A stretch of DNA of 64,000 bases from Eledone cirrhosa (taxonomy: Eukaryota), in the NCBI GenBank assembly GCA_964016885.1, contig CAXHJY010001625.1, positions 12,981-76,980 of the forward strand, given 5' to 3'. This document shows, piece after piece, positions 19,698 through 62,133 of the stretch. Below the pieces are notes generated by a model. That model was given only the letters and a program-made list of their open reading frames with translations, was not told where the DNA came from and did no database searches. The number at the start of each line of letters is the position of its first letter. The first letter of the stretch is position 1. The position numbers were made by a program, and so were the translations under genes.

Positions 19698-19904
19698 ATG
19701 AAGGAAGTGTGGTAAGGAACCAGGTGGACCATAACGCACCAGAGTACTCAATACTTAGGGTGGTAGAGTGAGTATTAGGAAAATGTTCAAAACCCCAACG
19801 GCAGAGCTCAAGCCATTTCGACGGCTATTTCTGGACTATTTCAGTCCAGAAATAGCCGTCGAAATGGCTTGAGCTCTGCCGTCAGAGTTTTGAACATTTT
19901 CCTA
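19698..19904 (-). mobile_element. Foldback element family W (Penelope-like terminus with inverted arm)
   Basis: ~62-bp inverted arms at 19776-19904 plus ~80-nt unpaired tail; homologs at 22348, 54183, 61941. Confidence 0.65.
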
Positions 19905-19988
19905 TATGATAAATTAACGGAGCCATAGACTCTCGCTATTCCCTGTCATTAATGTGCTCAAAGGAGAAGGAATCCCGAGCCCTTTATA

Positions 19989-20218
19989 ATACAATATGTA
20001 GAAAAGATAACACACCAGAGAGAGAGATAGTGCGCCATCAGTCAAACAGGGAAAAACCACCACTGTATGGCATCTATAACCCATGGAAGGGAAAGTAGAC
20101 ACACAATAATTAAAAGTATAAATCAAAGTGCAAATACGTACCACTGGTAGCTTTTCCCTGTTTGACTGATGGCGCACTATCGCTCTCTCTGGTGAGTTAT
20201 CTTCTCTACATATTGTAT
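19989..20218. repeat. Inverted repeat, ~70-bp arms with ~80-bp spacer
   Basis: ATACAATATGTAGAAAAGATAAC...CAGGGAAAA versus TTTTCCCTG...GTTATCTTCTCTACATATTGTAT. Confidence 0.85.
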
Positions 20219-20273
20219 CATCATCATCATCATCATTTTACGTCCGCTTTTCCCTGCTTGCAAGGGTGGGACG

Positions 20274-20312
<39 letters not shown>

Positions 20313-21021
20313 AAATATATATATATGTATATATGCGAAAGGTAAACGGATAAACAACACACCAAAACAAGAGCCTGTAACACTTAATGGAGTCGTCGGA
20401 GCAATGTACTGACACACAGTATATCTTAGATATTTGAAGTCTGGCAGAACCCATTTCTTCTTCTTCTCCTTCTTTGAGAGAGTGAGTGAGTGTGGAGGAA
20501 TCTACCCCAATACTGAACTGGTAATTTATTTATCAACCCTGAAAAGATGAAAGGCAAAGATGATTTTGGATTTGAACTCTGACTACAGTGAACCAGAACA
20601 AATACCAAGACACTTTTAATCTGATGTCCTAATTATGCTGCCAATTTGCTTTATATATATATCATTATCATCATCAACATTTTTACATTCAATTTTCCAC
20701 GCTTGGGTTGGACAGGTCCTTTTCTGCACACAATCCCTCCACTTGCTGCATCTCTTTATCATCTACTTTGTGAGCTGAGTGGACTGGCGTAACATGAAAT
20801 ATAGTGTCTTGCTCAAGGACACGTGCTACTAAGAATTAAACACAACCTTATGGTTGTGAGCTAAACATTAGAGTTGGGAGTATATAGAATTTCAGAGAGC
20901 TACTACTTCTGTAAAAGTTGAAGGTGAAAATGCACAGAAGTATTATTTTTTCTTTAATCCAACAGATTGAATAATTTTATAATTGTTGCATTAAATATAA
21001 CCAGTTTCAATTGATATACCA

Positions 21022-21390
21022 ATCATCACCGTTTTACGTCCGTTCTTCCACGCTAGCATGGGTTAGACGGGTTGTCCTGTTGTGGACAGTGTCCGGTTGG
21101 CTGACCTTGTCTTGCTCATACGGGAACTGATTCTGGCTTGATTTCTACAGCTGCATGCTCTTCCTAACACCAACCTCATTTACAGTGAGTGCTGGGCGCT
21201 TTTTTTCCATGGCGCCTACACGTCCACTTTACAGTGTGGGCTGGGTGCTTTTTTGCCGTGGCACCTCCACGACCACTTTGCAGTGGGAGGGGGTGGGGGC
21301 ATATTGTCTATATGCTTCAGCTTCGGCTTGTACCCGTGGGAAGTCGGGTCTTCTGTATTACTGCGTGATGCCAGTGGCCGCGGTCATGTG
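21022..21390 (-). mobile_element. RTE subfamily-2 3' end
   Basis: Matches 57362-57690; (TGA)n tail; last codons of ORF. Confidence 0.82.
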
Positions 21391-21672
21391 TTATATATAT
21401 ATATATATTTTTGTTTCACACACACATACAAACACAAGTGTGTGTGTGAAACAAAAATATATATATATATAACACATGACCGCGACACAAACACAAGTGT
21501 GTGTGTGTGTGTACGTGTATTGTACAATGTGAGTGTACAATACATATATGTTAGGAGAAATTTGTATCAAAAGAAAAAATAGAATGGTCAAATTTGAGGT
21601 TGCTCAAATGAAACAGGCTTCAGTTGCGTTCAATATTTAAAGTTATTATCTATTATTTTTTTTATGTCTGAT

Positions 21673-21710
<38 letters not shown>

Positions 21711-21721
21711 TGTGTGTGTAT

Positions 21722-21835
21722 CCTGGGTTCAATCGAGGGTAACTCAATACATAGCAGAGTATGAATTATTAATATAGAAATGGCTTCTACAGGACTAGAA
21801 CTGTTTCATTCAAAGGAAATCATCAGGATTTTCTC
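21722..21835 (-). mobile_element. Penelope-like terminal fragment with hammerhead core
   Basis: Minus strand CTGATGA-TTTCCTTTGAAT-GAAA-CAGTT; same family as palindrome at 58948-59036; abuts (TG)n. Confidence 0.5.
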
Positions 21836-22302
21836 TATACCATGCATGTTTTCTTAGTTATCTGATATATCTATTTACAAGTGTTGATCGTATTGCTAGG
21901 CACCCGCCGACGCACTACATCTACAATATGGATTCTTCACTTTTTATAGTGAAACATACTCTTATTTGAGCATGTCTGGATGTTATTGTTATAATCGGTT
22001 GGTTAATATTCTTTTTATTGATTTGTATTCACCATTCCTTCCGTAGGTAATATGTTTGTCACTCTGGTGGTTTTTGATCCCCTATGATTGAACTCATATC
22101 TCTGTGTACCTCTCTCTATCATCATCATCATCATCATCATCGTTTAACGTCCGTGTTCCATGCTTGCATGGGTTTGGACGGAGGGTTTTCCCACTTGAGG
22201 CAAGAGTGGTTATCTTGCTCGCATAGGACTATCTGGCGGGTTTTCTACAGCTGGATGCCCTTCCTAACACCAACCACATTTACAGTGTGGGGCTGGATGT
22301 TG

Positions 22303-22347
<45 letters not shown>

Positions 22348-22351
<4 letters not shown>

Positions 22352-22445
22352 AAAAAGTACTTTTTCCTATTACCCACTCTACTACCCTAAGTATTGAGTA
22401 CTCTGGTGCATTATGGTCCATCTGGTTCCTTACCACAATTCCTTT
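22348..22445 (+). mobile_element. Family W copy with collapsed palindrome
   Basis: TAGGAAAAAGTACTTTTTCCTA followed by the family W tail. Confidence 0.7.
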
Positions 22446-22636
22446 GTCCCTTTACAGTCTGAGTTCAAATCCCGCTGAGGTTCACTTTGCCTTTCATCCT
22501 TACGGGCTCGATAAAATAAAGTACCAGTAATGCACTGGCATTACCAGTAATTGCTGGCCTTATGCCAAAAGTAGAAACAATTATATATATATATATATGT
22601 AGTAAATATCTGTAACTGTGAAAAAGTAAAGTATTT

Positions 22637-22676
<40 letters not shown>

Positions 22677-22774
22677 CATGCTAGCATTGAAAATGGATGT
22701 TAGATGATGATGATCATCATCATGCTAGCATGGAAAAGCAGACGTAAAAATGATGATGATGATATATATATATA

Positions 22775-23045
22775 TAATAATGAAAATTATTGTGTACAGT
22801 GCTCAGGTGCACTACAACTCATCAAAGGTTCATGTACAGTTCATAGAATAATGTACAAAAGTCAGGAAAGTGAACAGTGTATGAGTCATGATATACACGC
22901 AGGCAGACAGGCATGCACACACACACACATACACACTCACGTGAGTGCGTGTGTATGGAGAGGGAATATCAGGTGTAGTGTTGGCGAATTTTGGGAAGTA
23001 TGGAAGTTTTGAAGGATGCACTGTTCCAAAAGCTAACAACTGATT
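22775..23045 (-). mobile_element. CR1-like 3' end fragment
   Basis: Reverse homolog of 42080-42310. Confidence 0.82.
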
Positions 23046-23054
23046 GTATGTATG

Positions 23055-23117
<63 letters not shown>

Positions 23118-23118
<1 letters not shown>

Positions 23119-23506
23119 CATCATCATCATCATCATCATTTTACGTCCGCTTTTCCCTGCTTGCAAGGGTGGGATGGGTCTTATTCAGCACAGCATCTCT
23201 CCACTCGTCACGGTCCTTCGTCATCTCCACCGTGAGCTTCAATGATCTGAGGTCTGTTCTCACCACCTCCGCCCATGTTTTTCTTGGTCTACCTCTACCA
23301 CGTCTTCCCTCAACTGACATTTCCTGGCACTTCTTCACCCATCGGTCATCCTCCATGCGCATCACATGTCCATACCACCTCAGTCTCCTCTCCCGTACAC
23401 TACATTCTATCCCTCTCAGACACAGTTTCTCTCTCAACACATTTATGCTGGGTCGTTCACGCACATTGACACTGCACATCCAACGGAGCATGCTTGCCTC
23501 ATTTCT
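23118..23506 (-). mobile_element. RTE subfamily-3 3' fragment with very short UTR
   Basis: RNEASMLRWMC...RRLRWYGHV...GRPRKTW; (TGA)n tail; both ends in (TA)n. Confidence 0.92.
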
Positions 23507-23811
23507 ATATATATATATATCCATATAATCATGGAAAATGTATGTATGATATTGATGATGATATATATACATGTGTTATCTTCAGTTGTGTCAAAGCCAT
23601 CCAACCTCCATATTGGTGGTGCCACAATTAATTGCTCTTAGTAAAGCATTGTTATGCATATAACTAAGATGCAGGTCTCCAACCTATCTGGGAGGTCAGT
23701 AGCTACACCTGTGTACTGACTCGGTCTGTCATGATCTATCCAACCCTTACTAGGGAAAATGGACGTCAAATTTAGATGATATATCATTCATTATCATTTT
23801 GCATCCACTTT

Positions 23812-23853
<42 letters not shown>

Positions 23854-23984
23854 AGACTGTGGTTGTGTGGCTCTGTGGTTGTATGTATGTGTGTGGATGT
23901 ATATCTCTGTGTGTCTATGTTTGTGTCTGTGTTTGTGTCTGTGTCTTTGTGTGTGCCTGTAGCTGTGTGTCTGTTGCTGTGCTT

Positions 23985-24372
23985 GTGTGTGTGGGCATGT
24001 ATGCGTGTCTGTGTATGTGTGTGTGGGCATGTATGCGTGTCTGTGTATGTGCGTGTGGGCATGTATGCGTGTCTGTGTATGTGTGTGTGGGCATGTATGC
24101 GTGTCTGTGTATGTGCATGTGGGCATGTATGCGTGTCTGTGTATGTGTGTGTGGGCATGTATGCGTGTCTGTGTATGTGCGTGAGGGCATGTATGCGTGT
24201 CTGTGTATGTGTGTGTGGGCATGTATGCGTGTCTGTGTATGTGCATGTGGGCATGTATGTGTGTCTGTGTATGTGCGTGTGGGCATGTATGCGTGTCTGT
24301 GTATGTGTGTGTGGGCATGTATGCGTGTCTGTGTATGTGCGTGAGGGCATGTATGTGTGTCTGTGTATGCAT
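23985..24372. repeat. 32-bp minisatellite (GTGTGTGGGCATGTATGCGTGTCTGTGTATGT), ~12 units
   Basis: GGGCATGT recurs every 32 nt. Confidence 0.93.
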
Positions 24373-24562
24373 GTGTGCCTTTGACTGTGTGTGTGTGTAA
24401 GCACGCCATTGCTGTGGGCCTTGGTGGTGATAGGAAACATTTTACACATAAATTTTACCATTAATGATAGTATTATGATGATGATGATGATTTATATCAG
24501 TGTTTATATCTATGGTGTGGCATTTCTAATTTTGAAACACATTGGTCTTCAGTTGTAGAGCT

Positions 24563-25826
24563 GCACATACACACACACACACATACATACACACACGCAC
24601 ACATACATACACACACACATACATACACACACACATACACACGCACACATACATACACACGCACACATACATACACACACACACACACATACACACATAC
24701 ATACACACACACACACATACATACACACACACACACACATACATACACACACATACATACACACACACACATACATACACACACACATACACACACACAC
24801 ATACATACATACACACACACATACATACACACACATTCATACATATTTACAACACATACGTACATAGACACATACATACATATATGCATGCACACACATA
24901 TACACATGCATACATACACACGCATACATACATATATACAACACATACGTACATAGACACATACATACATACATATATGCATGCACACACACACACGCAT
25001 GCATACATACATATATACAACACATACGTACATAGACACATACATACATATATGCATGCACACACATATACACATACGTACACACATACATGCACACATA
25101 CACACATATATTGCCAGGCATAAATCTGCCTGCGTAGACTCCCACTAGTAAATGACAATACCACCCACCTCTACACACATACATGCATACATACATATAT
25201 ACAACACATACGTACATAGACACATACATGCATACATACATATATACAACACATACGTACATAGACACATACATGCATACATACATATATACAACACATA
25301 CGTACATAGACACATACATGCATACATACATATATATACAACACATACGTACATAGAGACATACATGCATACATACATATATACAACACATACATAAATA
25401 CATATATGCATGCACACACATATACACATACATACATACATACACACACATACATACATACACACATACATACACACATACACACACATACATATATATG
25501 CACACATACACACATATTGCCAGGCATAAATCTGCCTGTGTAGACTCCCACTAGTAAATGACAATACCACCCACCTATACACACACACATACATACATAC
25601 ACACATACATACACACATACATACACATACATATATATGCACACATACACACATATTGCCAGGCATAAATCTGCCTGTGTAGACTCCCTCTAGTAAATGA
25701 CAATACCACCCACCTATACACACACACATACATACATACACACATACATACACATACACACATATTGCCAGGCATAAATCTGCCTGTGTAGACTCCCTCT
25801 AGTAAATGATAACAATACCACCCACC
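24563..25826. repeat. (CA)/(CATA) array with ~45-bp higher-order units and four copies of a ~60-bp complex insert
   Basis: ACAACACATACGTACATAGAC units; ATTGCCAGGCATAAATCTGCCTG...CCACCCACCT at ~25110, 25516, 25655, 25763. Confidence 0.92.
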
Positions 25827-26361
25827 TTTGTTGTCATGCTCAAGTAATTGATGTCATACAAATCACACACATTTTTCAGTCACAACTATTCCAACATTGC
25901 ATGTACAGGAGACATTACAAACAGCTGGAGGGATAAGAAAAGACATCAATGCTTTAAAACGTTAATTGACTTTTTATTATATTATAGATTAAATTTCTCA
26001 GTGAATTCAAATCTAAGAAAATAAATTAATCACTTGCATTCTTTAAATGGCATGAAACAAAATCATAAAATTTTACTGTAGAAATGAAGTGGTGAAGTCG
26101 GATAGAGTAACTTAAAAACATGGTCATACGGAGATTCTGTATAGTTTAGTGAAGACTTTTGTAGATGGCTAAGACTAAAGATATTTTTTTTTCTAATTAG
26201 AAATGAAACCTTGGGCAAGTAGAATTATCTTTTACAGAAATACAATGCCTAATTTATAAATTAAATATCATATCGTCATTGTCTTGAAATTAATTGTCTT
26301 TTTTTGTTTTTGTTTTTTGGTCAGTTTGGGTTTTTATTTGTTTTCTTTTTTTGTGGTTGTT

Positions 26362-26400
<39 letters not shown>

Positions 26401-27774
26401 ATGGTCAATGGTTGGATATATTGTTATATCACCATTTGTCTCTGTGGAAATTTGAAACAAAATGAATTAATTCAGTGAAATCCAGCAGTTTTGATAGCAT
26501 AAAGGATGTTAGAAATGTAATATATTCCTAACTAAATGATAAAATATGTAATTAAGAATAACCCATTATTTTCTATAAGATTTACAGTTAGTCTTCTTGT
26601 GTGTTGTGTTGTCAGTTTATCTGAATTATTTCAAATACATTATTAATAATCTTGACAAAATGATAAACAATACAGATTCTTGATTCTGCTCAATTATAAA
26701 TCACACATTAATGTTTAGCCACTGGTCAGCTGCCTGCTACTGGACAGAGCTATGATCAAAGACAATTCAACCGTGACAACTTTCCTTGTCCTCTTGGGTA
26801 TTGTGGATCTCAGACTAAATTGTCCAATGTGTCATTTCCTTCTTCAGGCAATGGAGTTAGCCTGTCCCATTCGAGACATTTGGGGGAGTCAGGCTGCTAA
26901 CTGTGAGGTTCTTGTTTTCACTGGTGGCTTGCTTAACCAATGTAACTGGTGTTGCTCGTGAGGCTCTTGGTTGTTCCAGTGCATCAGCCTCGCCATCATC
27001 CAAGGTAATGCTGCGACCAACTGCTGTGGTCAACTTTGCCTTTAATATTTTTGAGGTCGATAAAAAATGTACCAGTCCTGTACTAGGGTTGATTCTTCTT
27101 CTATAGAAAAAAATCCGCTGTGTTCAGACCTGGAGAGGGATGGGCTCCACTAGCTTTAAATGTGCTCTAGACGTGCCATATGACAGTGCCTCTATGGCTC
27201 TACAGGGAGTTATGGGATCTTTATCCTTATCTTTTAAGAAAAAGGGGAGAGGGTGTAAATGGTTTTATCTTTGCTATCTTGTTCAGAAATATTTTCTGCT
27301 ATTTCTAGCCGTTTGAGTTACTACTCCTTTTCAACTTTTGTAGATCAATATCAAACACTGGAACACATATTGCATTGAAATTATTTTGCTATTTTATAGC
27401 TTTCCAACTAATACATTTTTTTGAAGTGATTTCACAATCTATTTATTTCGACCTTATAAATGTTAAAATATTATTTTATAAAAAGACTTCACCAAAGTGA
27501 TTTTGTTTTTATTTTGACAAACTATAAACATTAGGTCAGCAGTTTGTAGGTAGACATAAAATGAAAGTGTAAAAAAACGGTGTTGTTGTGTGGCTGGTTT
27601 ATGTAACTGAGAAGTTGAAGTGCAAATGTAACGAACAAATTTGTTTTGGTGCAACATGTTCATAAATGAAATAGTTGTATTTGGTTTGAAACTGTAGTCA
27701 TGCCAAATTTATATAAAACTACCTTCACAGTATTTTTAAAAGCTGTATTATGAAATTGAGATGGTTAACATGTT

Positions 27775-27930
27775 CAGAATTTGACCCCAAACATATTCAG
27801 AATTTGACCCCAACCCCAAACATATTCAGAATTTGACCCCAACCCCAAACATATTCAGAATTTGACCCCAACCCCAAACATATTCAGAATTCGGCCTCAA
27901 CCCCAAACATATTCAGAATTGGACCCCAAT
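27775..27930. repeat. 28-bp minisatellite (TTCAGAATTTGACCCCAACCCCAAACATA-like), ~5 units
   Basis: Direct inspection. Confidence 0.9.
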
Positions 27931-28262
27931 ACACACTGGCTTGATGAGCCTCCAGACTTAGTACAGACTTTTAACATTTATAAGATGCAAAATGATAAAC
28001 TTTTGGCACAAGGCCAGCAATTACCCAGTGCATTATTGGTACATTATGCCCCAAAAGTCTTTTAGTGCCAGAAGGTTTGACTCTCAGTTCCTTAACCCCA
28101 ATGCAACTGAGATAAGTACCAACCTGATGGGCTTGGGATAGATTTTCACTTCAACTTTTTAACATTTATAAGATGCAAAAGTGTAATGAGAATAATGTGA
28201 ATAATGATTGTGATGTTGCAGATTTTAAAGAGTATATTTATGTATATTTTAATCTTTTTCAG

Positions 28263-28317
28263 AAATCCTAATTTGGAGAACCTGTATTGATTAGACCCCA
28301 AAACTAAAAGGTCTGAG
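28263..28317 (+). other. Candidate 55-nt non-coding exon
   Basis: TATTTTAATCTTTTTCAG acceptor and GAG|GTAAGT donor; stops in all three frames. Confidence 0.35.
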
Positions 28318-28367
28318 GTAAGTTATTACTTATTTAATATTAATAATTATTGGAAAACGAAAGCTTA

Positions 28368-29234
28368 CAGTGGTCAACAACATTTTTGGTGCATTGATGC
28401 TGACACTTGATGTTACCTAATTTGAGTGTGCTGAATTCAAAAGTTAGTTTTCCTCTGATAGCTCCAAACTTTTTGCAATTAATGAATGTTTCTTGTATGA
28501 TGATTCAATCCATTTGAATATTTTATAATTATACCATCTTCATAATAGGTTAAAAACAAATATCTTTGCATTCTATTCATAAATACGAGTTAGGCTATAA
28601 AAATAATATTTAACATTCCTATAAATGTTACCATTTGCCAATACAGAAACATAACATTACAATAAGGGAGTGTACTGATTTTCAGTGGAAAACATACATC
28701 ATATACAATTAATAAGTAGCTAGGTCAGAAACGGAAAAGTATTGAAGGCAAAACAAAAATAGTTCTTATTGAAGCAAGAATTAGCGCTTGTAGCTCTCGC
28801 GTTGAAGAATCCATGATTAGAAGCAATGATTAGATCTGAAACATAAGCACAATTGTGAATTTTAAGTATGATATATCTTAAAATCGCCAGAAAACCAGAG
28901 CATGTAGAACAAAACTAATTTCAAAGTTGAAATCAGCACAAACAATTAACCCTTTAGCATTTAAACCGGCCATATCCAGCCAGAGTTCTCTCACCTCTTT
29001 CTGTTCAAATCGGCCATAACCAGCTGTTCATACTGATGTTAAGGTATTGTTCTTAAAATAAATGATATCAAAGTCTCACAGATTCGATATTATATGAGAT
29101 ATTTTGCAAGATAAAGCCTTTACCATGAAAATATAATAGTATATATAGAGTAATGTAAATGCTAAAGGGTTAAGCTAGAAACAGTGAAAAAATCTCATGC
29201 ACCAGAAAAAAAGAAAAAAGGTTGTTGCCCAGTG
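28368..29234. mobile_element. Old non-autonomous Tc1/mariner-type DNA element carrying a nested MITE
   Basis: Imperfect TIRs CAGTGGTCAACAACATTTTT / AAAAAGGTTGTTGCCCAGTG; subterminal GTGCTGAATTCAA / TTGAAATCAGCAC and AGTTAGTTTT / AAAACTAATT. Confidence 0.65.
28950..29169 (+). mobile_element. piggyBac-like MITE (220 bp)
   Basis: TTAA|CCCTTTAGCATTTA ... TAAATGCTAAAGGG|TTAA: 14-bp perfect TIR with TTAA target duplication. Confidence 0.9.
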
Positions 29235-29759
29235 TTATCTGATCAAATCAATTTTCTGACTGTTACCACCTGGGATGTTTATGTCAGAGTTCAATAAATA
29301 TTTGAGATAAAGAGTTAAGAATTGAATTTCAAATCATAATATATCTAATATAATATATTTGAATGAGAAGATATTTCTATTTATTTTATTTATGGTTTTC
29401 TTTTAATATATATTTTTTATATGTTTTCCTATCTTTGTATTACTGAGAAGTTCCTGAAAATTCTAACCACTACATGAATTTTTAGGTTGACTTTTGTTGT
29501 TAGTCCTTGTTAAGCCTGTCTGTACCATATATCTAATGAATGTCACCTTATATTCATTGTTAAATAATCAAGAATTTGGAGGAATTTAGTAAAATGATTT
29601 TCTCATTATTTAGTTGGTGTTTAGAACATAACTTAAAAGGTTCTTATATAAAATTATAGTGAGGTGTTTTAAAATAAATCTGAACATTTAAAAATAAACA
29701 GCTTGTATTGTAGAACCATGGTCAGTTTCAGGCAGTTTGGAATCAAAATATTAAATTGA

Positions 29760-30125
29760 TAGAACTCAAACATACATCTAGTAGACACCTCTTAACCGCT
29801 ATACCCCATCCACCCACTCCTGCCACCCTTACACTGTGAACAAAACATATTCAGCCCATACTGTAAAGTGGCCATGTAGGTGTCATGACAAAAAATACCC
29901 AGCCCACACTGGAAAGTGGTCATGTAGGTGTCACAACAAAAAGCACTCAGCACACACTGTAAATATGGTTAGCATTAGGGAGGGCATCCAACTGTAGAAA
30001 TCTATCCAGAAAGCGTTCTATATGAGCAAGACACAGTCACCTGACCCAACTTGCCTCAAACGGGACAACCCATCTAACCCATGCTAGCATGGAAAATGGA
30101 TGTTAAATGATGTTGATGATGATAG
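29760..30125 (+). mobile_element. Old RTE 3' UTR with internal repeats
   Basis: Homology to 17600-18097; GGGCATCCAACTGTAGAAA; (TGA)n tail. Confidence 0.75.
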
Positions 30126-30761
30126 ACTGAAGAAGATTTTATAAATAGTTTTTATTTAGACAAAATAAAAATGAAATGTTGAAGCATGAGAGTCTTTGTA
30201 ATATAATAATTGTTTCTACTTTTGGCACAAGGCCAGCAATTACCCAGTACATTACTGGTACTTTATTTTATCGACCCCGAAGGATGAAAGGCAAAGTTAA
30301 CCTCGGCGGGATTTGAACTCAGATATTATTATTGTGTAATACAATAATGTGTTGTTCTTTGCATATTTTTGGCGAGGTTTTACCCTTCCTATCACCAACC
30401 ACTTTATAGTGGGGACTGGGTGCATTATTTGTGCCACTAACACTAGTGAGATTGTCTTACTGGACTGAAGGATGATCTCTAGTCTATATTGGACCCGTTG
30501 AACCCATGCTGACATAAAATGATGATGATGAAATGTACTGTACTCCTTGAAGTACTTGTATTTTCAATATTTTTACATGTTTAATGCTGAGTCAACTCTG
30601 ATCAAACAAACATGATCAGAGGTACTCTAGCAATGACAATCATAGCTTTTATTTCTGACTTAGTGTATCTAGGACTACATTATGCAATCTCCTTCGTTTT
30701 AAAGATGGATGGGTGTGATTTGAAAGGGATCTAGCATCTTTTATTGTAAACTGACTAACTA

Positions 30762-31419: not shown

Positions 31420-31420
31420 A

Positions 31421-42575: not shown

Positions 42576-42668
42576 CGGAGGGAATGAATATTACCCAGTT
42601 ACAAGTATGAAAATAGCTCAATGTAGAATAACAAATATACTACAGAGCCAAAATTGTCATTTACATTG

Positions 42669-42870
42669 TATATATATATCATCATCATCAGGTTTAGCGT
42701 CCGTGTTCCACGCTTGCATGGGTTTGGACGGGGGTTTTCCCACTTGAGGCAAGAGTGGTTGTCTTGCTCGCATAGGACAACCACTCTTGCCTCAAGTGGG
42801 AAAACCCCTGTCCAAACCCATGCAAGCGTGGAACACGGACGCTAAACCTGATGATGATGATATATATATA
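42669..42870. repeat. Near-perfect ~200-bp palindrome made of two RTE 3' ends
   Basis: ~95-bp arms, 12-nt loop TTGCTCGCATAG, (TA)n on both sides. Confidence 0.93.
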
Positions 42871-42967
42871 CATATGTGTGTGTGTGTGTGTGTGTTTATA
42901 TATATATATATATATATAATTGGTGCTGGATGCTTAAAGCGTCCGTATGCGGTAGGCCGTATGAGCA

Positions 42968-51244: not shown

Positions 51245-51760
51245 CAACGTCATCACCACTGTAATCCTTCTCCCCCCCTTTCATCATCACCACCACCACT
51301 TCCTCCTTCTCTGCGTCCTACTCTACCATCACCTACTCCTCAACATCAGCACCACAGTAATCCTCCACCCCTTCCATCACTGCCGCCACTACAGCACTTC
51401 GTCCTCCACCTTCTACTCCCCCACCACCACCACCTCCTCCTCCACCACAACCTCCTCCTCCTCCACCACCAACTTCTCCACCACCACCTCCTCCTCCACC
51501 ACCACCACCTCTAACTTCACCACCTTCACCACCACCTCTTCTTCCTCACCTTCCTCCTCCACTGCCACCACCACCACCACCACCCCCTCCTCCTCCACCA
51601 CCATCACCTCCTCATCTTCCTCATCCTTCACCACCACCAACATCTCCATCATCATCTCCACCATCACCACCTCCTCCTCCACTGCCACCATCACCACCAC
51701 CACCCACCTCTCCTCTTCCACTGCCACCAACCACCACCTCTTCAGCCTCCTCTTCATCCT
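51245..51760. repeat. (CAC)/(CCT) triplet mosaic
   Basis: Direct inspection. Confidence 0.92.
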
Positions 51761-52338
51761 TATTTTCGTCAACATATCATTGAGGCATGTGCTTAAAATA
51801 AATTTTAAAATATATTTTAATGTAAAGTGTGGGAACATATGTGTATGTAGGCGAGAATTGCCCTACCCACCTGGCCTGTCTGTGAAGTCAGTAACATCAC
51901 TCCCAGTCACCCAAAACTAAACCCACCCCCCATCATCATCATCATCTAATGTCCGTTTTTCCCTGCTAGCAAGGGTTGGACTGGTCGCTTCAGAACAAGT
52001 CTTAAAAGGATAAGAGGCAAAGTTGACCCCAGTGGGATTTAAACTCAGAGTGTAGATATCCAGATCAAATACTGTAAAGAATGATGTCCTACTCTCTAAC
52101 AACTCTTCCAATTTAAGTTCTTGAGAGAAAAGGATAAGAAGAAAAAAAAATAGGTGTAACAGTTAGAGTAGCTGTATACAGCTTACTTGGAACTATTCAG
52201 TTGAGAGAGAGAGAGAGAAAATGAGAGTGATATATATATTTCAATGTGGTCTACCCTTGGTGGTAGGGTCCGTACATATATGTTGATTTAAAACTGCACT
52301 ATCCACAAGTGTTTTTTAGCCTTCATATCATGTTCTCC

Positions 52339-52409
52339 TGTTTTATCTGATGAAAACACAAATATTATTACATGATGATGTTTGTTTTTGAAATGCGCAT
52401 AATAAAATA
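52339..52409 (+). ncRNA. Minimal type-I hammerhead ribozyme motif, family Y (within repeat ~52282-52445)
   Basis: TGTTTTAT-CTGATGA-[long helix II]-GAAA-TGCGCA-TA-ATAAAATA. Confidence 0.7.
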
Positions 52410-52552
52410 CATGGAACTCCTTTAACCATCTTTTGATCTTATATTATATATACTCCAGTCCTACAACCTGTAGAGTGCTTCTTATCCGATATCTGCATTG
52501 CTTTATTGTACTACAATAAAACTCACCTCCTACATATATATATATATATATA

Positions 52553-53348
52553 TCTAATATATATTTGTGAAATGGGTGGTGGTTGAAATTCAGATGTGCA
52601 CGGTTAAATGGTAGTAGACATGGTCGGACGGACATGAAAATTTACACACCTATGTAAAAAGTGGCAAGGAAGCAAATAGATGAGGTTTCAAATCTCTAAC
52701 TTGAAAAATGTGGTCCCTAGGGTCCCCAAACGGTCTATTTACAATCGCGTTCGGTGAGTTATTTCCCCCTGTTCTAATACATGGATGAGTTATTTACAAT
52801 TTCATACAAATTTTTAAACTCATCTTTTGCTGTTAACATACAGAACCAATAATTTGAAAAATATTATTGAAAGTTTATTATAAAGAAGCAGTTTCAGGAA
52901 AAAAAATAGAAATATGCACTTGGGGCTGGACGGCGTACAATGAGAAGTGGAGCGATGTGAAAAGCGTTGTTTATTAACAGCGAAATAGCAATGTCGATGT
53001 TATGCAAGTTTGAAAATGCAGATTAATAAACTGTTGCCTTCTACAGTATGTTTCATTTTCATTTTTCAATTACAGTTGCTCTATATTAAATTTAAATACT
53101 TCTATAACGATCATACAGTACCGTTTTATGAAATCGATTCTGCAGTAGAATTTTACGAAATGCCAAATCGAAAAAGATCACTGTTTTCTAACAAAAGAAA
53201 TAAAACCCTTACCTTCTCATTGTACACCGTCCAGCCCCAAGTGCATATTTCTATTTTTTTCCCTGAAACTGCTTCTTTATAATAAACTTGCAATAATATT
53301 TTTCAAATTATTAACTTAATAAAAAGTGCAACCGGGTGCAGCTGCTAG
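52553..53348 (+). mobile_element. Non-autonomous Helitron with internal 100-bp inverted repeat
   Basis: A|TC 5' end, GC-rich subterminal TGCAACCGGGTGCA, CTAG|T 3' end, no TSD, inside (TA)n. Confidence 0.72.
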
Positions 53349-53458
53349 TATATATATATAAGAGATGTCAACATGAATGAACCTGTTATTTTTATCTAAA
53401 GACATTTTTTCCAATTCCATCCCGCCCATTCCCTCAATCTATCTTATTTCTCTTTCTT

Positions 53459-53494
53459 TCTTCTGATGAAGGACAAGTGTCCGAAACATTAGGA
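53459..53494 (+). ncRNA. Hammerhead motif, family Z (element ~53360-53580)
   Basis: TCTT-CTGATGA-AGGAC-aagt-GTCC-GAAA-CATT-AGGA. Confidence 0.65.
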
Positions 53495-53611
53495 CCCTCA
53501 TCCTGCTATATCAAGCGTTAACCTAATATATCCGTTCCATATACTGTACTGATTGTGTTGTTATTTCTGTTTACCTTTTACATACATATATATATAAATT
53601 CTTTTCTTATA

Positions 53612-53712
53612 GCTAAGTAGTGAGTCTTGTTACTCTGGAATTTCACCTGTCTCATCTCATGATCCTGCGATTCCACAGGTGAAATCCAGAATAACAAGAC
53701 TTACTATTTAGC
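53612..53712. repeat. Foldback with hammerhead-like core at its centre
   Basis: ~39-bp arms; centre reads CTCATGA-TCCTGCG-att-CCACAGGT-GAAA. Confidence 0.7.
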
Positions 53713-54182
53713 CTTAATAAATGAATATTTAAACTCTTTTCTGGTATCGAGTACTCTTTTCTCTCATCCGACAACTACATATGTGTGTGTGAGTGTCCAT
53801 ATGTATATATCTATATATATATAGAGAGAGGTTAGTTCCACAACAGTTAATTAACCATTGCCAAGAACAATGGCTTACATTCGAAAAATGTGATTGGTGT
53901 CGGGAAGGGCATCCAGCTTTAAAAGTCCAGCCAAAATACAGTTCCATTTAAGCAAAGTATAGTGCAGTCAACTGGCTGTACTTGTCTCATAACATGGACG
54001 ACCTGTCTAGCACAAGCTTGGAAAAATAAATGGTGATGATGATATGTATATAAATATATATATATATATACACACATTTATATATGTATATGTATATACA
54101 TATACAAATATATCATCACCATCATCACCGTTTTAGCGTGGAAGAATGGACGTAAAACGATGATGATATATATATATATATA

Positions 54183-54384
54183 TAGGAAAAAGTATGACCC
54201 CGACGGCAGAGCTCAAGCCGTTTCGACAGCTATTTCTGGACTAAATTTAGTCCAAAAATAGCTGTTGAAATGGCTTGAGCTCTGCCGTCGGGGTCATACT
54301 TTTTCCTATTACCCACTCTACTACCCTAAGTATTGAGGACTCTGGTGCGTTATGGTCCATCTGGTTCCTTACCACAACTCCTTC

Positions 54385-54387
<3 letters not shown>
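54183..54387 (+). mobile_element. Foldback element family W
   Basis: Palindrome 54183-54308 plus tail; (TA)n on both sides. Confidence 0.7.
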
Positions 54388-54421
<34 letters not shown>

Positions 54422-54647
54422 TTATATATCTTTCTGTTCACACATTAGACCATACAGACATCCATTATATATGTCTTTGTTAAAATATAGATTCTTTGGA
54501 ATAACATTTTTTGCGGCGTTTTCTAGCATGACTGTAGTGTGACCCTTACGCTGACTTCTTTATTTCTTTCTTCCCCTTTTTTATTCTTTGATGGAGAGGT
54601 AGATTTATTTTGAAAAATTGGTTGAATTTTACTTGTTCTGCTTATCT

Positions 54648-54733
<86 letters not shown>

Positions 54734-55348
54734 TGTTTCTACTTTTGGCACAAGGCCAGCATTACCCAGTACATTACTGGTACTTTATTTTATCAACCCC
54801 GTAAGGATGAAAGGCAAAGTCTGATTTTGATATATATACATATATATATCATGACTCTGTTTTTGCGTTTCGTTTCGCTTTTTCTACCAGCTGAAATGCG
54901 ATTCTTGCTAAGTTTATAGTTATATATATATATGTATATACATTTATATATATATATATATATATATAGATAGATAAATATACATGGGTGTGTATGATTG
55001 TGTATAGAAGATTATATTAATAAGAGGAATTCCAACTTTGTCTGATTTACTCGTTTTATTTACAATCCTTTAAAATTTATAATGGTATTATAATGAAATA
55101 GTATGATAGAATATTAAATGTTAAGTGTTAATTGAACAAGTACTTTCATGCTTTCACAATCTTCAGGTTCATAATGTGTGGTGACAGTCAAGTTTGCAAT
55201 TTTCAACTGTAATGAGATGGGTAAATTTTGTATCTTATATACAGTGAAAAGTGGCTCCAGAATGCTAAATCTTGCAAACTTTATTTCGACCAATCGGTGT
55301 GTAGTTTCACTGAATTACTATACATATATATATTTATGTGTATAGATT

Positions 55349-55390
<42 letters not shown>

Positions 55391-55501
55391 CATTTATATA
55401 TATATATACATATATATATATGTATATACATTTATATATATACATATATTTATATATATATATATATACATATATTTATATATATATATGTATATACATT
55501 T

Positions 55502-56845
55502 ACGGGTACGGCGGCTGGGCCTTCGGAAATAGTTGCTGAGATGCTGAAGGCATCTGGTACGGTGGGACACACCTTGGTCACCCGGATAGTTAACCAAGTC
55601 ATACAGAATGGGGTTGTTCCGAAGGACTGGCGTAGCAGCATCATCATTAACTGTTATAAGGGTAAAGGAGATGCCCTAGATAGGAGAAACTATAGAGGCA
55701 TTAAATTAATCGACCAGGTCATGAAGGTCACGGAAAAAGTAATAGTGCAACTAATCAGAGAGAGAATTGACCTAGATGAAATGCAGTTCGGGTTTGTGTC
55801 AGGTAAAAGTACCACAGACGCTCTTTTCATTATACGAAAACTACAGGAGAAGTACCTAGCTAAAAGTAAACCCCTATACTTAGCTTTTGTCGACTTGGAG
55901 AAAGCCTTCGACAGAGTCCCCTGTTCCATTATCTGGTGGGCTCTTAGAAAACTAGGTGTTGACGAATGGCTTGTGAGAGCTATACAAGCCATGTATAAAG
56001 AAACAGTCAGCAAGGTTAGAATTAACAACGAATATAGTGAAGAGTTTAGCGTAAAAGTTGGCGTCCATCAGGGCTCTGTTCTCAGCCCCCTACTATTTAT
56101 TATTGCCCTTCAGGCTATAACAGAGGAGTTCAAGACCGGCTGCCCATGGGAACTCCTATACGCAGATGACCTAACACTCATAGCTGAATCAATGTCCGAG
56201 CTACAGAAGAAATTCCAAGCATGGAAGCAAGGCCTAGAATCAAAAGGCCTTAAAATTAACCTGGCTAAGACTAAAGTTCTAGTTTGTAAGAAAGAAAATA
56301 AGGCGGCGGTCCCTTCCGGGAAGTGGCCATGCTCAGTGTGTAGGAAAAGCGTAGGTAGAAACTCCATTTTGTGTCCCAAATGCAAAGTATGGGTGCATAA
56401 AAGATGTAGTGGGATCACAGGTAAGCTAACTAAGAACATAGAAGACCCGCCTTACCTAAATACAAAGTAAAACCTACTACAGTCAGTAGGCATCTCTAAC
56501 AAAATACACCCCCGTCCCACCACCCCCACCCCATCCACACCGCCCCTTTCAATGTAAAGTTATGTTGGTGCCACAACATCCAGGCCGAAACAAATGAGAT
56601 CGTGTAGGTGTCACGACAAAAAGACACACAGTCCACGCTGTAATGTGGCCGTGTAGGCAACACGGTAAAAACCTCCCAGCCCCACACTGTAAATGTGGTT
56701 GGTGTTAGGAAGGGCATCCAGCTGTAGAAAACCCGCCAGACAGTCCTATGCGAGCAAGACAATCACTCTTGCCTCAAGTGGAAAAATCCCCGTCCAAACC
56801 CATGCAAGCGTGGAACACGGACGTTGATGATGATGATGATGATAT
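55502..56845 (+). mobile_element. RTE LINE, same family as 14873-18097, 5'-truncated with 656-bp internal deletion
   Basis: Open RT frame (QFGF, DLEKAFD, QGSVLSP, YADD); jumps from KLTKNI directly to the ORF end; intact 3' UTR and (TGA)n tail. Confidence 0.95.
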
Positions 56846-57026
56846 ATACATATATTTATATATATATATATACATTTATATATATACAAATATATATATA
56901 TATGTATATACATTTATATATATGCAGGAGGTTAGTTTTAATGTAGCACAATAAAGCAATGCAAATATCGTTGATTTAAAACTTCACTATTCACAAGTGT
57001 TTTTTAAGCTTCATATCATGTATCCC

Positions 57027-57097
57027 TATTTTATCTGATGAGAACGCAGATATCATCCCATGATGATATTTGTTTTTGAAATGCGCATAATAAAATA
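57027..57097 (+). ncRNA. Minimal type-I hammerhead ribozyme motif, family Y (best copy; repeat ~56969-57133)
   Basis: Perfect helix I TATTTTAT/ATAAAATA, CTGATGA, helix II ...GATATCATC/GATGATATT..., GAAA, palindromic TGCGCA, AUA triplet. Confidence 0.78.
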
Positions 57098-57135
57098 CTT
57101 GGAACTCTTTTAACCATCTTTTGATCTTATATTAC

Positions 57136-57177
<42 letters not shown>

Positions 57178-57360
57178 GTATATACATTTATATATGTATA
57201 TACATTTATATATATATATATGTATATACATTTATATATGTATATACATTTATATATGTATATACATTTATATATATATATACATATATATATATATGTA
57301 TATACATTTTTATATATATATACACATATATATATATATATATACATTTATATATACATA

Positions 57361-57965
57361 TCATCATCATCATCATCATCACCGTTTTACGTCCGTTCTT
57401 CCACGCTAGCATGGGTTAGACGGGTTGTCCTGTTGTGGGTAGTGTCCGATTGGCTGACCTTGTCTTGCTCATATGGGAACTGATTCTGGCTTGATTTCTA
57501 CAGCTGGATGCCCTTCCTAACCTCATTTACAGTGAGTGCTGGGTGCTTTTTTGCCGTGGCACCTCCACGACCACTTTCCAGTGGGAGGGTGTGGGGGCAT
57601 ATTGTCTATATGCTTCAGCTTCGGCTTGTACCCGTGGGGGGTCGGGTATTCTGTATTACTGCGTGACACCAGAGGTCACGGTCGTATGTCATCGCCTTTG
57701 AGAGATGTAGTTGAGTAAGGTAGGCTTTTATCACCTCATCCCAGGTCTTCTTGGGTCTCCCCACTCCACGGTTTCCATCGACTTCTAGTGCTCTGCACCT
57801 TTTTATGCAGCTGTCATCCTTCATACGCATCACATGTCCATACCAACGCAACCGCCTCTCCTGCACATAGCATTTGATTCCTCTTATGCTCAGTCTCTCT
57901 CTCAAATCATTTATGCTTTGCTGTTCGCGTACATTACTATTACACATCCATCGGAGCATGCAGGC

Positions 57966-57972
<7 letters not shown>
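57361..57972 (-). mobile_element. RTE subfamily-2 3' fragment
   Basis: ORF 57615-57959 MLRWMC...RRLRWYGHV...GRPKKTW; UTR and (TGA)n tail. Confidence 0.92.
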
Positions 57973-58037
<65 letters not shown>

Positions 58038-58256
58038 GATAAATCTACCAAGAGTTTACGGTAGTGTCCAATCCGTATCTTGATAATTTGTATAATTTTG
58101 TATAATTTTGTACATAGATCTGTTAAATATGCATACCAATTATAACACATATATGCCCTAGAAACGATCGTTAAATAGTGAACTTTTTTTGTTTAATATA
58201 AGGAATTGTTTGTTCATTATTTGTTTAATATTTTATATATATATATATACATTTAT

Positions 58257-58595
58257 AAATTAGAAAATAGAATAGCTTCCACCGTATTTTTGACTAAAGA
58301 AATTTTAGCCTGATAATGGGGTCTAGAACCCTCAGATAAATGGAAAAAGATGAGTATTGACGTACATGGGAGTCGAACCCACATCTTTGGTTATCCAGAC
58401 CACTGTGCTACCATTACACCAACACATGGATAACCAAAGATGTGGGTTCGACTCCCATGTACGTCAATACTCATCTTTTTCCATTTATCTGAGGGTTCTA
58501 AACCCCATTATCAGGCTAAAATTTCTTTTGTCAAAAATACGGTGAAAACTATTCTATTTTCTAATTTCAAACCTGCTCACTGTTTCAAAACATAC
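58257..58595. mobile_element. Foldback of a tRNA-headed element (141-bp arms, 29-nt spacer, ~28-nt tail on one arm)
   Basis: Minus strand A box TGGTGTAATGG and B box GGTTCGACTCC; arms 58257-58397 and 58427-58567. Confidence 0.8.
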
Positions 58596-58692
58596 TTATA
58601 TACATTTATATATATATATACATTTATATACATATATACATTTATACATATATACATATACATTTATATATATATATATACATTTATATATG

Positions 58693-58739
<47 letters not shown>

Positions 58740-58822
58740 AAGGTAAACAGAAATAACAACACAATCGGTACAGTATATGGAAGGGATATATTAGGTTAAC
58801 GCTGGATATAGCGGGAAGAGGG

Positions 58823-58858
58823 TCTTAACGTTTCGGATGCTAGTCCTTCATCAGAAGA
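58823..58858 (-). ncRNA. Minimal hammerhead motif, family Z (element ~58738-58940)
   Basis: TCTT-CTGATGA-AGGA-ctagca-TCC-GAAA-CG-TT-AAGA; palindromic AACGTT. Confidence 0.72.
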
Positions 58859-58947
58859 AAGAATGAGAAATAAGATAGATAGAGGGGACGGGCAGGCTGT
58901 AATTGGGAAAAAAGTCTTTAGAGAGAGAGAGAGATGAAATGTAATAT

Positions 58948-59036
58948 AAATAGCTTCTACAAGACTAGAACTGTTTCGTTTGTAAGAAATCATCATTCTT
59001 ACGAATGAAACAGTTCTAGTCTTGTAGAAGCCATTT
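58948..59036. repeat. Foldback whose junction lies in a hammerhead core
   Basis: ~40-bp arms; same family as 21722-21835. Confidence 0.75.
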
Positions 59037-59128
59037 CTATATTAAATATTGTATATACCCTACTAATGTATGAAGTACTTCACTTACTATGGCTGTCTTC
59101 GCTTGAACCTGGGATTCACATATCTATC

Positions 59129-59159
<31 letters not shown>

Positions 59160-59642
59160 CTATCTCTCTCTATATATATATACAGAGGGAGAGAGACACA
59201 GACAGACAGAAGGGGGAGGAAGAGAGACAAAATGAGGGGAGAAGGATGGAGAGAGGACACAGTATGTTGTTGTTCTAGTGAGTCTTTCATAATCAATCAA
59301 ATTACATTTCTTTTGATGTGGTCAAGAGTCATCCAGATATTTGAGTAGATCCAAAATATACTAACAATACACTAATTGCTTTTCCATTGCAGTTTTTCTA
59401 CAGTACTGTAGATGTTTGTTTGTCATGAATGGTATAGATACCAGTAAGATATTGTGAAGAAATAATTATCTATAGATATATTCCCCACTAGAAAATGAAT
59501 TTGACTCGAGATATCATTATTATAATTAGGATAAGTATCTGGTTCTTTTTCACATAAAAATGTTTTACTAATTAAGTAGGATGAATTATTGATTTCAATG
59601 CTGGAGGTTATTGGAGAAATGATGATGATGATATTAGTAATA

Positions 59643-60044
59643 ATAATTGTTTCTACTTTTTGGCACAAGGCCAGCAATTACCCAGTACATTACTGGTACT
59701 TTATTTTATCGACCCCGTAAGGATGAAAGGCAAAATTAGTAATAATAATGGTTTCTGATAAAGGCACAGGCCAGCAATTTTGGGGAAGGGGGAAGTCAAT
59801 TAAATCGACCCCAGGACTTACTGGTGCTTTATTTTATTTTCTCTGTAAGCATGAAAGGGAAAGCTAACCTTGGCAGGATTTGAACTCAACATAAAGGGAC
59901 GTAACTCTATGCTGCAAAGCATGGTGTCTGATGCTCTACCGATATTGCCAATCCATCGCCCTAATAATAATATTAATAATAATGATTTATTTATTAGCCA
60001 CACAGGGCTCATATTAAGGAAACATTAAAGACAGTACAGGACGA

Positions 60045-60045
<1 letters not shown>
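59643..60045 (-). mobile_element. Tx1-like tail followed by two SINE A copies
   Basis: Homology to 12560-13010 in reverse. Confidence 0.8.
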
Positions 60046-60078
<33 letters not shown>

Positions 60079-60171
60079 TTGGGAGGGGGGATAAATAAAA
60101 TTTATAACTGAAACTAAGAAAAATAAACATTAAAGAAAACAATAAAATTTACAATTAATAATAATAATAAT

Positions 60172-60360
60172 CAGTGTATAGAAGAAATACAAAAGATAGT
60201 ACTATTGGGAACTGGCCATATTGTAAGGAAAATTCTGTTGATATGAGTTCATTTCACAATTGTAAATGACTAAAGATATTTTTTTTTTCTCCATTTTCAA
60301 ACATAATGGAACTTGTCTCTTGAGCTCACTGGTTCTGACTTGGAACAAAAATAAAAACAA
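60172..60360 (+). mobile_element. R4/Dong-like 3' end in (TAA)n
   Basis: EEIQKIVLLGTGHIVRKIL then stop and short UTR; TAA repeats on both sides. Confidence 0.65.
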
Positions 60361-60377
60361 TAATATTAATAAAAATA

Positions 60378-60577
60378 ATAATTGTTTTTACTTTAGACAC
60401 AAGGCCAGCAATTTGAAAGGAAGGGGTAAGTTGATTAAATCGACCTCAGTGCATTACTGGTGCTTTATTTTATTCACCCCGTAAGGATGAAAGACAAAGC
60501 GAGATTTGAACTCAGAACGTAAAGGACCGTAACTCTATGCCACGAAGCAGGGTGTCCAACGCCACTCCACCACCCTA
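60378..60577 (-). mobile_element. SINE family A
   Basis: Body and tail homology. Confidence 0.8.
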
Positions 60578-60731
60578 AGTAATAATAATATTAATACCAA
60601 CAACACTGGAGAGCAATATTTAACTTAGATGTTAAACCTGTTTGGGGGGCATACTAATATTACTGTTTATAGAAATGACATTAGTTTTTTTTTCCATCAA
60701 CCCTGCTTATCAAGATATATATATATAGGTA

Positions 60732-61062
60732 GGAGGCACATGGCTTAGTGGTTAGAGCATTGGCCTTGCAATCAAAAGGTTGTGAGTTCAATTCTCAGAC
60801 CGGGTGATGTGTTGTTTCCTTGAGCAAGACACTTTATTTCACATTGCTCCAGTTTACTCAGCTGTAGAAATGAGATGATAGGGACTGGGGTCCATATCAT
60901 TCCACTGCAAAGTGGTCGTGGAGGTGCCACGGTAAAAAAAAGCACCCAGCACTCACTGTAAATGAGGTTGGTGTTAGGAAGGGCATCCAGCTGTAGAAAT
61001 CAAGCCAGAATCAAGCAGGGAAAAGTGGACGTAAAATAATGATGATGATGATAATGATAATG
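60732..61062 (+). mobile_element. CORE-type SINE with RTE-related 3' region
   Basis: TGGCTTAGTGG A box, GAGTTCAATTC B box, CCTTGAGCAAGACACTTTATTTCACATTGCTCCAG core, (TGA)n tail. Confidence 0.85.
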
Positions 61063-61084
61063 ATATATATATATATATTATATA

Positions 61085-61471
61085 TCATCATCATCATCAT
61101 TTAACGTCCGCTTTTCCCTGCTTGCAAGGGTGGGATAGGAACTGATTCTGGCTTGATTTCTACAGCTGGATGCCCTTCCTAACACCAACCTCATTTACAG
61201 TGAGTGCTGGGTGCTTTTTTTCCATTGTGCCTACACGTCCACTTTACAGTGTGGGCTGGGTGCTTTTTTTGCCGTGGCACCTCCACGACCACTTTGCAGA
61301 GGAATGATAGGGACCCCAGTCCTTATCATCTCATTTCTACAGCTGAGTAAACTGGAGCAATGTGAAATAAAGTGTCTTGCTCAAGGAAACAACACATCAC
61401 CCGGTCTGGGAATTGAACTCGCAGCCTTTTGATTGCAAGGCCAATGCTCTAACCACTAAGCCATGTGCCTC
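61085..61471 (-). mobile_element. CORE-type SINE, inverted partner of 60732-61062
   Basis: Reverse complement with extra internal segments. Confidence 0.85.
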
Positions 61472-61479
61472 TATATATA

Positions 61480-61531
<52 letters not shown>

Positions 61532-61577
61532 GGGGGGGGAGGGGGGGAGAGAGAGAGAGAGGAGGGAGGAGGGAGGA

Positions 61578-61620
<43 letters not shown>

Positions 61621-61657
61621 GAAATCACATGAATCAAAGTTCTATTCAAACCATTTA

Positions 61658-61708
61658 TTAGCTTACAATTGTTTCGCCCCAACCGAGGTTTGGAGTCTTC
61701 GGAGCAAT
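61658..61708 (-). ncRNA. Hammerhead-like motif with one core change, followed by AATAAA
   Basis: GCT-CCGAAGA-CTCCAAACC-tc-GGTTGGGGC-GAAA-CAATTG-TA-AGC; palindromic ACAATTGT. Confidence 0.55.
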
Positions 61709-61895
61709 TTTTTCAATGATTGTTTACATACATGACCTCCTTTCCAAGAGACATACAGAAACATATGTATATATCGATACACAGTGGGGTGATATCCATT
61801 ATAATATTTTAGCATGGCAATTTACATTCAAAAATTAAAATCATATTAAAAGAAAATTATATATATATAATATATATATTTATATATATTATATA

Positions 61896-61929
<34 letters not shown>

Positions 61930-61940
61930 TATATATATAT

Positions 61941-62132
61941 AAGGAAGGAAATGTGGTAAGGAACCAGGTGGACCATAACGCACCAAAGTACTCAATACTT
62001 AGGGTAGTAGAGTGGGTAATAGGAACGGGTAGGACCCCGACGGCTGAGCTCAAGCCATTTCGACGGCTAATTCAGTCCAGAATTAGCCGTCGAAATGGCT
62101 TGAGCTCAGCCGTCGGGGTCCTACTCGTTCCT

Positions 62133-62133
<1 letters not shown>
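61941..62133 (-). mobile_element. Foldback element family W (divergent variant)
   Basis: Palindrome 62020-62133 plus tail 61941-62019; (TA)n on both sides. Confidence 0.7.

Follow-up and report, generated by a model that had tools for sequence, protein, structure and literature searches.

The window analysed here is a 64,000-nucleotide (nt) stretch of the Eledone cirrhosa genome (assembly GCA_964016885.1, contig CAXHJY010001625.1, positions 12,981 to 76,980 of the forward strand), in which short palindromes with hammerhead ribozyme motifs near their turning points lie within (TA)n repeats. To judge from their sequence, the three families concerned, W, X and Y, are abundant Penelope-like elements (PLEs) of the Hydra type inserted in (TA)n, and we consider it likely that each palindrome is an insertion in which two complementary DNAs (cDNAs) ran off the 5' end of the capped sense RNA and were joined head to head. 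In this model the capped sense RNA would begin 40-47 nt before the hammerhead cleavage site; a protein of the element would nick both strands of the (TA)n target and prime two cDNAs, at two start sites; both cDNAs would extend to the 5' end of the RNA or stop short of it; and their 3' ends would be joined at microhomologies of 1-7 nt or with a few added bases, the product being a palindrome with a one-sided tail. Long copies that pass the predicted start would come from a second pool of templates, circular or read-through RNA. The ribozyme would lie near the turn because the pseudo-long terminal repeat (pseudo-LTR) places the promoter 40-47 nt before the cleavage site. An original prediction, made from the letters of the window, had the reverse transcriptase switching template at the ribozyme hairpin; it had the right elements and the right neighbourhood but probably the wrong cause.

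Hammerheads and the ends of the arms

Arm positions are counted from the C at the hammerhead cleavage site, taken as position 0. The upstream part of long W copies supplies the half of the hammerhead that is absent from the mini insertions, and the putative ribozyme then reads, in order, helix I, the core TTGANAA, a long imperfect helix II, GAAA, stem III and GTC. Across 73 long copies, core positions 3, 4, 5, 6, 8 and 9 are respectively T, T, G, A, A and A in no fewer than 71; position 7 is variable, and 60 of the copies have GTC as the cleavage triplet. The hammerhead that had been proposed for W was thereby borne out, with UUGANAA in place of CUGANGA; this core is a U3:A8 variant, and U3:A8 is a natural, active hammerhead covariation (PMC3088659). 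X and Y have the core CTGATGA; helix I of Y covaries between subfamilies, and X combines its canonical hammerhead with a tail related to those of W and Y. An Rfam scan returned no hammerhead among the best 150 of 369 matches.

Other hammerheads were observed as well. One further minimal family occupies 53370-53590 (forward strand) and 58740-58915 (reverse strand) of the window, with cores at 53463 and 58854; another, with CTGATGA, a long helix II, GAAA and a palindromic stem III, lies at 52347-52410 and 57035-57100 and has folded relatives at loci L121 and L252. A different Hydra-type family (L063, reverse strand 224-1900, and L226) shows the hammerhead-like motif CAGAAGA instead of CTGANGA, and a Y-subfamily copy at L121:7740-7940 carries two hammerhead units in direct tandem.

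The longer arm of W mini insertions ends at -40 to -47 in 58 of the 91 that were scored out of 114, the other 23 having been dropped because they belong to a third subfamily without a long reference or have large gaps. Among the first 30 W arms that reach -41, judged by eye, about 16 end within seven bases, 7 end deeper in helix II and 7 run through. Arms of X and Y traverse the entire ribozyme before ending near -46, where helix I has its 5' edge; upstream sequence was not shared in 29 of 30 Y loci (L327 being the exception) or in 14 of 14 X loci, all of them chosen on that edge. Because X and Y stop at the edge of helix I and W stops at helix II, the point that they have in common is not a helix. 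Breakpoints are clustered, as the original prediction required. Run-off at the cleavage site was rejected as the main stop, few arms ending near +1.

In long W copies, TATTTAT or TATTTAA is followed by TTAGT or TCAGT; counted from the first T, the A of this second motif is base 32 in 47 of 57 copies and base 30 in another 5. Long Y copies have TATAAATA, with the first G of the arms at base 31, and three long copies of X have TATATATA and then TCAGT or TTAGT, with the A at base 31. A spacing of about 30 nt is that of a TATA box and its transcription start. In a rotifer pseudo-LTR, a TATA box, 20 bp and an initiator are reported (PMC3846280). Among W arms that abut (TA)n directly and have a base other than T in front, 95 end at the predicted start A and 3 at a control A ten bases downstream. 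From the positions of these motifs we infer that the arms end at the start of the RNA, 40-47 nt upstream of the cleavage site.

The base in front of the predicted start also bears on this reading. In the 95 W ends, read by eye, it was C in 52, G in 35 and A in 8, and arms that run through had T in front of the A in 65 of 65. For Y, 32 ends abutting (TA)n had G in 19, T in 10, A in 2 and C in 1, versus C in 90, T in 8 and G in 2 for the first 100 of 198 long copies (Fisher p 1.4e-12). Reverse transcriptases can copy the RNA cap as one extra base, and the extra G may well be a copied cap; our literature search found no paper on a cap copied by reverse transcriptase as an extra base.

Several observations weigh against placing the RNA start at this point. 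In W the arm ends pile up over a span from -40 to -47, which is also where the top of helix II lies, so that structure and microhomology may contribute; the TATA-like word of W is non-consensus and also pairs in helix II; many short arms end well before the predicted start; and the extra-G test gave a single match in X. The C before 52 of the 95 W ends can be explained by the TCAGT subfamily or by repeat decay, and (TA)n(GA)n flanks could be the source of some of the G, 12 of the 35 following TT versus 3 A. Lastly, of 18 upstream pseudo-LTR pieces in full-length W copies, 3 stop short of the cleavage site, 1 stops at the pile-up and 14 continue past the pile-up. With 14 of the 15 that reach the hammerhead extending beyond the predicted start, the model needs its second template pool, and a strong stall at helix II is likewise disfavoured. 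RNA circles are known for hammerhead retrozymes (PMC7229834).

Two arms joined head to head

W is a high-copy family, one exact 30-mer of which occurs 4159 times in the 3.0-Gb assembly. A sample of 100 evenly spaced 10-kb stretches (1 Mb) yielded 48 W matches, with 16-17 mini insertions (17 by script, one of them false) versus 4-5 long insertions counted by eye; extrapolation from this 1 Mb gives roughly 50,000 W minis genome-wide. The family, its fixed short-arm end and many differing centres were also present in short-read contigs of three other runs, and the palindromes are therefore no artefact of long reads. None of the sequencing runs listed as carrying the family was an RNA run, which counts neither for nor against transcription.

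The 3' ends of 218 W arms fell largely at two fixed points about 100 nt apart: 97 lay at +16 to +21, 64 of these reading TTCCTATATATA, and 96 lay at +95 or beyond. It had been claimed that the short arm always stops at the same place; a fixed end is indeed common, but with 25 of the 218 ends lying elsewhere, "always" was too strong. Long W insertions share this head-to-head layout and the same pair of outer ends, between which arm lengths range from 11 nt to 2.8 kb, and single-arm copies terminate at the same point as the arms of palindromes. Centres differ among W copies and substitutions are arm-symmetric, as had been noted: over a 16-nt block in 114 minis, an arm differs by 0.99 letters from its own partner and by 4.4 from the arms of other copies. 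Both arms of a mini are thus of one subfamily, the mirror arm being rebuilt at insertion.

Among 29 W minis not chosen by their centre, the longer arm was the tail-less one in 19 and the tail-bearing one in 8, and the two were equal in 2; over all 91 scored minis the corresponding numbers were 49, 29 and 13. The tail-less arm is also the longer in the long insertions L203 and L223. Snap-back primed at the tail yields only a longer tail arm and therefore cannot explain longer tail-less arms, whereas two cDNAs on opposite strands allow either arm to be the longer. Junctions in W mostly show an overlap of 1-7 nt or a few added bases. At L362 and L375, runs of T stand directly before the W start site, possibly as untemplated additions at a cDNA end.

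Priming of both target strands in W, X and Y would have a parallel in the PLE PAc Poseidon (Frangieh et al. 2024, PMC11167929), which in vitro uses two internal start sites that bracket the tail, cuts and extends both strands of AT-rich targets, and has uncleaved RNA as its template. Neither the joining of two cDNAs nor run-off at the RNA 5' end is addressed in the parts of that paper considered here.

A stall at the hammerhead hairpin, followed by fold-back or by a switch of the enzyme onto the strand that it has just made, would suit the clustering of W ends on the 3' side of the helix II loop, the roughly 7 in 30 arms (by eye) that end further inside helix II, and the deletions by which some arms skip stem III. 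We nevertheless hold this cause to be improbable. Arms of X and Y pass the whole fold before stopping; a longer tail-less arm, as in 19 of 29 minis, is not a product of snap-back; full-length W copies pass the hairpin in 14 of 15 cases; and the minimal hammerhead family with cores at 53463 and 58854 showed no fold at its ribozyme in the 17 matches listed. The stops instead match the RNA start predicted from the TATA and initiator motifs, often with an extra G that a stall does not predict.

The numerical excess of minis over long copies raises another explanation, in which the minis are self-copying elements resembling short interspersed elements (SINEs), with an internal promoter at the centre and the palindrome rebuilt from one arm by twin priming. 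Minis do retain everything downstream of the predicted start, the Penelope promoter of D. virilis is internal (PMC2377424), and no open reading frame (ORF) of X was found. This explanation is nonetheless unlikely: the TATA-like box is absent from the minis, all four of the commonest mini haplotypes that were compared were seen in long copies too, and a fifth in L244, and no mini-only subfamily with a fixed centre of its own was shown, identical centres recurring across subfamilies at microhomologies. A separate non-autonomous class, which had been suggested, is likewise not demonstrated by the minis, whose main haplotypes are also found in long copies. Two candidate signals were discarded: a shared centre was not accepted as proof that copies descend from one master mini, since such centres sit on microhomologies and recur across subfamilies, and a G-to-A letter in the right arm, rare in unbiased copies, was attributed to query bias.

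More tentatively, run-off from the capped 5' end might be extended to a view of the minis as fixed "strong-stop" intermediates. The enzyme would prime twice near the capped end and run off, and the 40-47 nt from start to cut would form an R-like terminal repeat, letting a cut 3' end or a ligated circle support full-length copying. The hammerhead would then define the end of the template, and PLEs and LTR elements would have a step in common. In retroviruses, minus-strand strong-stop DNA is a short run-off cDNA primed near the RNA 5' end, and in LINE-1 twin priming two primers on one RNA give an inversion; the minis differ from both in that their two arms copy the same stretch and become fixed in the genome.

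Penelope-like identity and related systems

Longer copies surfaced when one arm or the tail alone was used for searching. The ORF pieces of W contain YRDD, DKT, CxCx5C, a GIY-YIG-like stretch (IYQC..AYIGLT) and CxxC/CxH, and run into the W end; read as Hydra-type motifs, they give LRWRT (an RWR variant), HSDKT, CNCPDRSTC and CNLC..E..N..CKH, in (TA)n flanks. In 18 of 30 loci taken at the start of the W ORF, an upstream pseudo-LTR piece continues through the tail into a 5' leader and the ORF; the unit is about 3.2 kb, and inverted arms adjoin many of these loci. The tail of Y runs, in locus L115, into the N-terminal part of an ORF similar to that of W. No intact single W ORF was seen among these pieces, and a Pfam search of three of them matched no family. 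A homologue search gave 1131 matches, the names of which were uninformative among the best 120 listed. Two longer X copies share about 70 nt upstream, and no ORF match was found for X in 6.5 kb.

By its ORF motifs and (TA)n targets, W would belong to the Hydra clade as described by Craig et al. 2021 (PMC8557442), whose members likewise have a C-terminal GIY-YIG, DKT, a CxCx5C linker, CxxC and CxH around E and N, a hammerhead in the pseudo-LTR and (TA)n targets. W differs in its RWR for RWK, its unit of about 3.2 kb and its U3:A8 hammerhead with a long helix II; tens of thousands of mini palindromes are not described in the sections of PMC8557442 considered. The Penelope-like origin put forward in the original prediction was upheld for W and Y, with a reverse transcriptase/GIY-YIG ORF linked in W and the start of an ORF in Y, and is likely for X.

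Near-perfect hairpins in TA repeats could be taken for miniature inverted-repeat transposable elements (MITEs), DNA transposons with long terminal inverted repeats, or for palindromes trimmed at the centre after insertion, and central deletion is to be expected in DNA palindromes. Such an origin is extremely improbable here. Tails are one-sided, arm lengths vary from one copy to the next while the outer ends stay the same, single-arm copies end at the same point, and the link to the retroelement ORF is continuous, which refutes a MITE origin for W and Y.

Animal non-LTR retrozymes (PMC7229834; bioRxiv 10.64898/2026.07.22.740005) are also short non-coding hammerhead repeats derived from PLEs. 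They are, however, tandem direct repeats with whole ribozymes. Each copy in the window is instead a single insertion with head-to-head arms, the 5' half of the core is absent from W minis, and on these points the palindromes are not retrozymes.

The inverted pseudo-LTRs of endonuclease-containing (EN+) PLEs (PMC8557442, PMC3846280, PMC2377424) resemble the present palindromes in having a head-to-head, inverted and 5'-truncated copy, a tail at one end, a palindrome or microhomology at the junction, and a TATA box with initiator in the pseudo-LTR. In the families studied here, by contrast, the tail is about 80-100 nt long versus 30-40, the dominant product comprises only the stretch from start to tail, and the junction is tied to the predicted start and an extra G. 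Earlier papers already describe inverted pseudo-LTRs, tails and palindromes at the junction, as well as hammerheads and the targeting of (TA)n (PMC8557442, PMC3846280, PMC4209133, PMC2377424), but PMC3846280 and PMC8557442 do not settle how head-to-head PLE ends arise, or whether the template is sense or antisense. For rotifer elements, self-priming on an antisense template has been put forward to explain the palindromes at which inverted pseudo-LTRs meet head to head (PMC3846280); as the source of the palindromes described here this mechanism seems very unlikely, leaving unexplained the sense-strand TATA/initiator ends with their sense extra G, the two fixed 3' ends, and the fact that either arm may be the longer.

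Run-off at the RNA start was not found as an explanation in the literature searched, outside which lay most subscription journals and Repbase; the words palindrome and hammerhead are absent from the main text of an octopus repeat annotation (PMC13282606). Tens of thousands of minis ending at the predicted start with an extra G would offer a testable answer, namely twin priming on capped sense RNA, and would help to explain how Penelope-like elements form inverted ends. From DNA alone, the minis would also locate three putative PLE promoters, and they add a natural U3:A8 hammerhead present in high copy number. With W minis at about 16 and short inverted repeats at 129 per Mb, the process would be a large source of tight hairpins, and in a cephalopod genome such a supply would bear on the excess of double-stranded RNA noted for octopus (PMC5625713). 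The 129 repeats, all outside simple repeats, were observed in the 1-Mb sample (L096-L135, L226-L285), and 106 of them are not W, X or Y; at least nine other loci of the sample carry Hydra-like ORF pieces.

Palindromes of the window

All five palindromes named in the original prediction are present where it placed them. The first W mini (19695..19904, reverse strand) consists of a palindrome at 19776-19904 and an 81-nt tail at 19695-19775, and its arms extend to -41 and -47. In the second (54183..54389, forward strand), the tail-less arm starts at 54183 and the junction lies at about 54243-54248; the predicted RNA start A is at 54249, GAAA-stem III-GUC follows with the cleavage C at 54289, the equivalent of the second start site is at 54308, and the tail spans 54309-54389. 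The third (61939..62133, reverse strand), of the second W subfamily, is made up of a palindrome at 62020-62133 and a tail; its tail-less arm reaches -44 and its tail arm only -34, with an overlap of 4 nt. A fourth W copy, which the prediction had missed, lies at 22348..22447 on the forward strand and has a 22-nt palindrome and most of the tail.

The X mini (53598..53782, forward strand) has an inverted arm, the decayed core CTCATGA at 53656, as had been reported, GAAA at 53681 and a tail to 53782. In the Y mini (58943..59115, forward strand), with GAAA at 59007 and a tail ending at about 59115, the tail-less arm runs back into the core and the tail arm starts in helix II. A single-arm Y copy on the reverse strand (21722..21835) retains the whole core CTGATGA..GAAA and ends a few bases upstream of it; as had been read earlier, 21790-21830 is CTGATGA-TTTCCTTTGAAT-GAAA.

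The TTTC..GAAA symmetry that had been remarked on in all five palindromes is there to be seen, but it is uninformative, any inverted repeat containing GAAA having it. A turn at helix II was confirmed for W only, X and Y turning at the 5' edge of helix I. The three families had also been called unrelated; the tails of W, X and Y have a GTATTGAGTAC-like motif in common, and the families are therefore related.

The window holds other palindromic repeats. One of 311 nt, at 58257-58600, has a centre resembling a tRNA (Rfam tRNA at 58358-58428, 42.6 bits) and a short tail on one side only; it has relatives in L106, L230 and L259 and resembles a tRNA-derived SINE with the same two-armed mode of insertion. 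A 215-nt palindrome at 42663-42877 is tail-less and begins and ends with (ATC)n; at 22120-22290 there is a relative that is not folded. Further families of inverted-repeat elements are represented at 19986-20221, 14778-14878 and 52848-53312.

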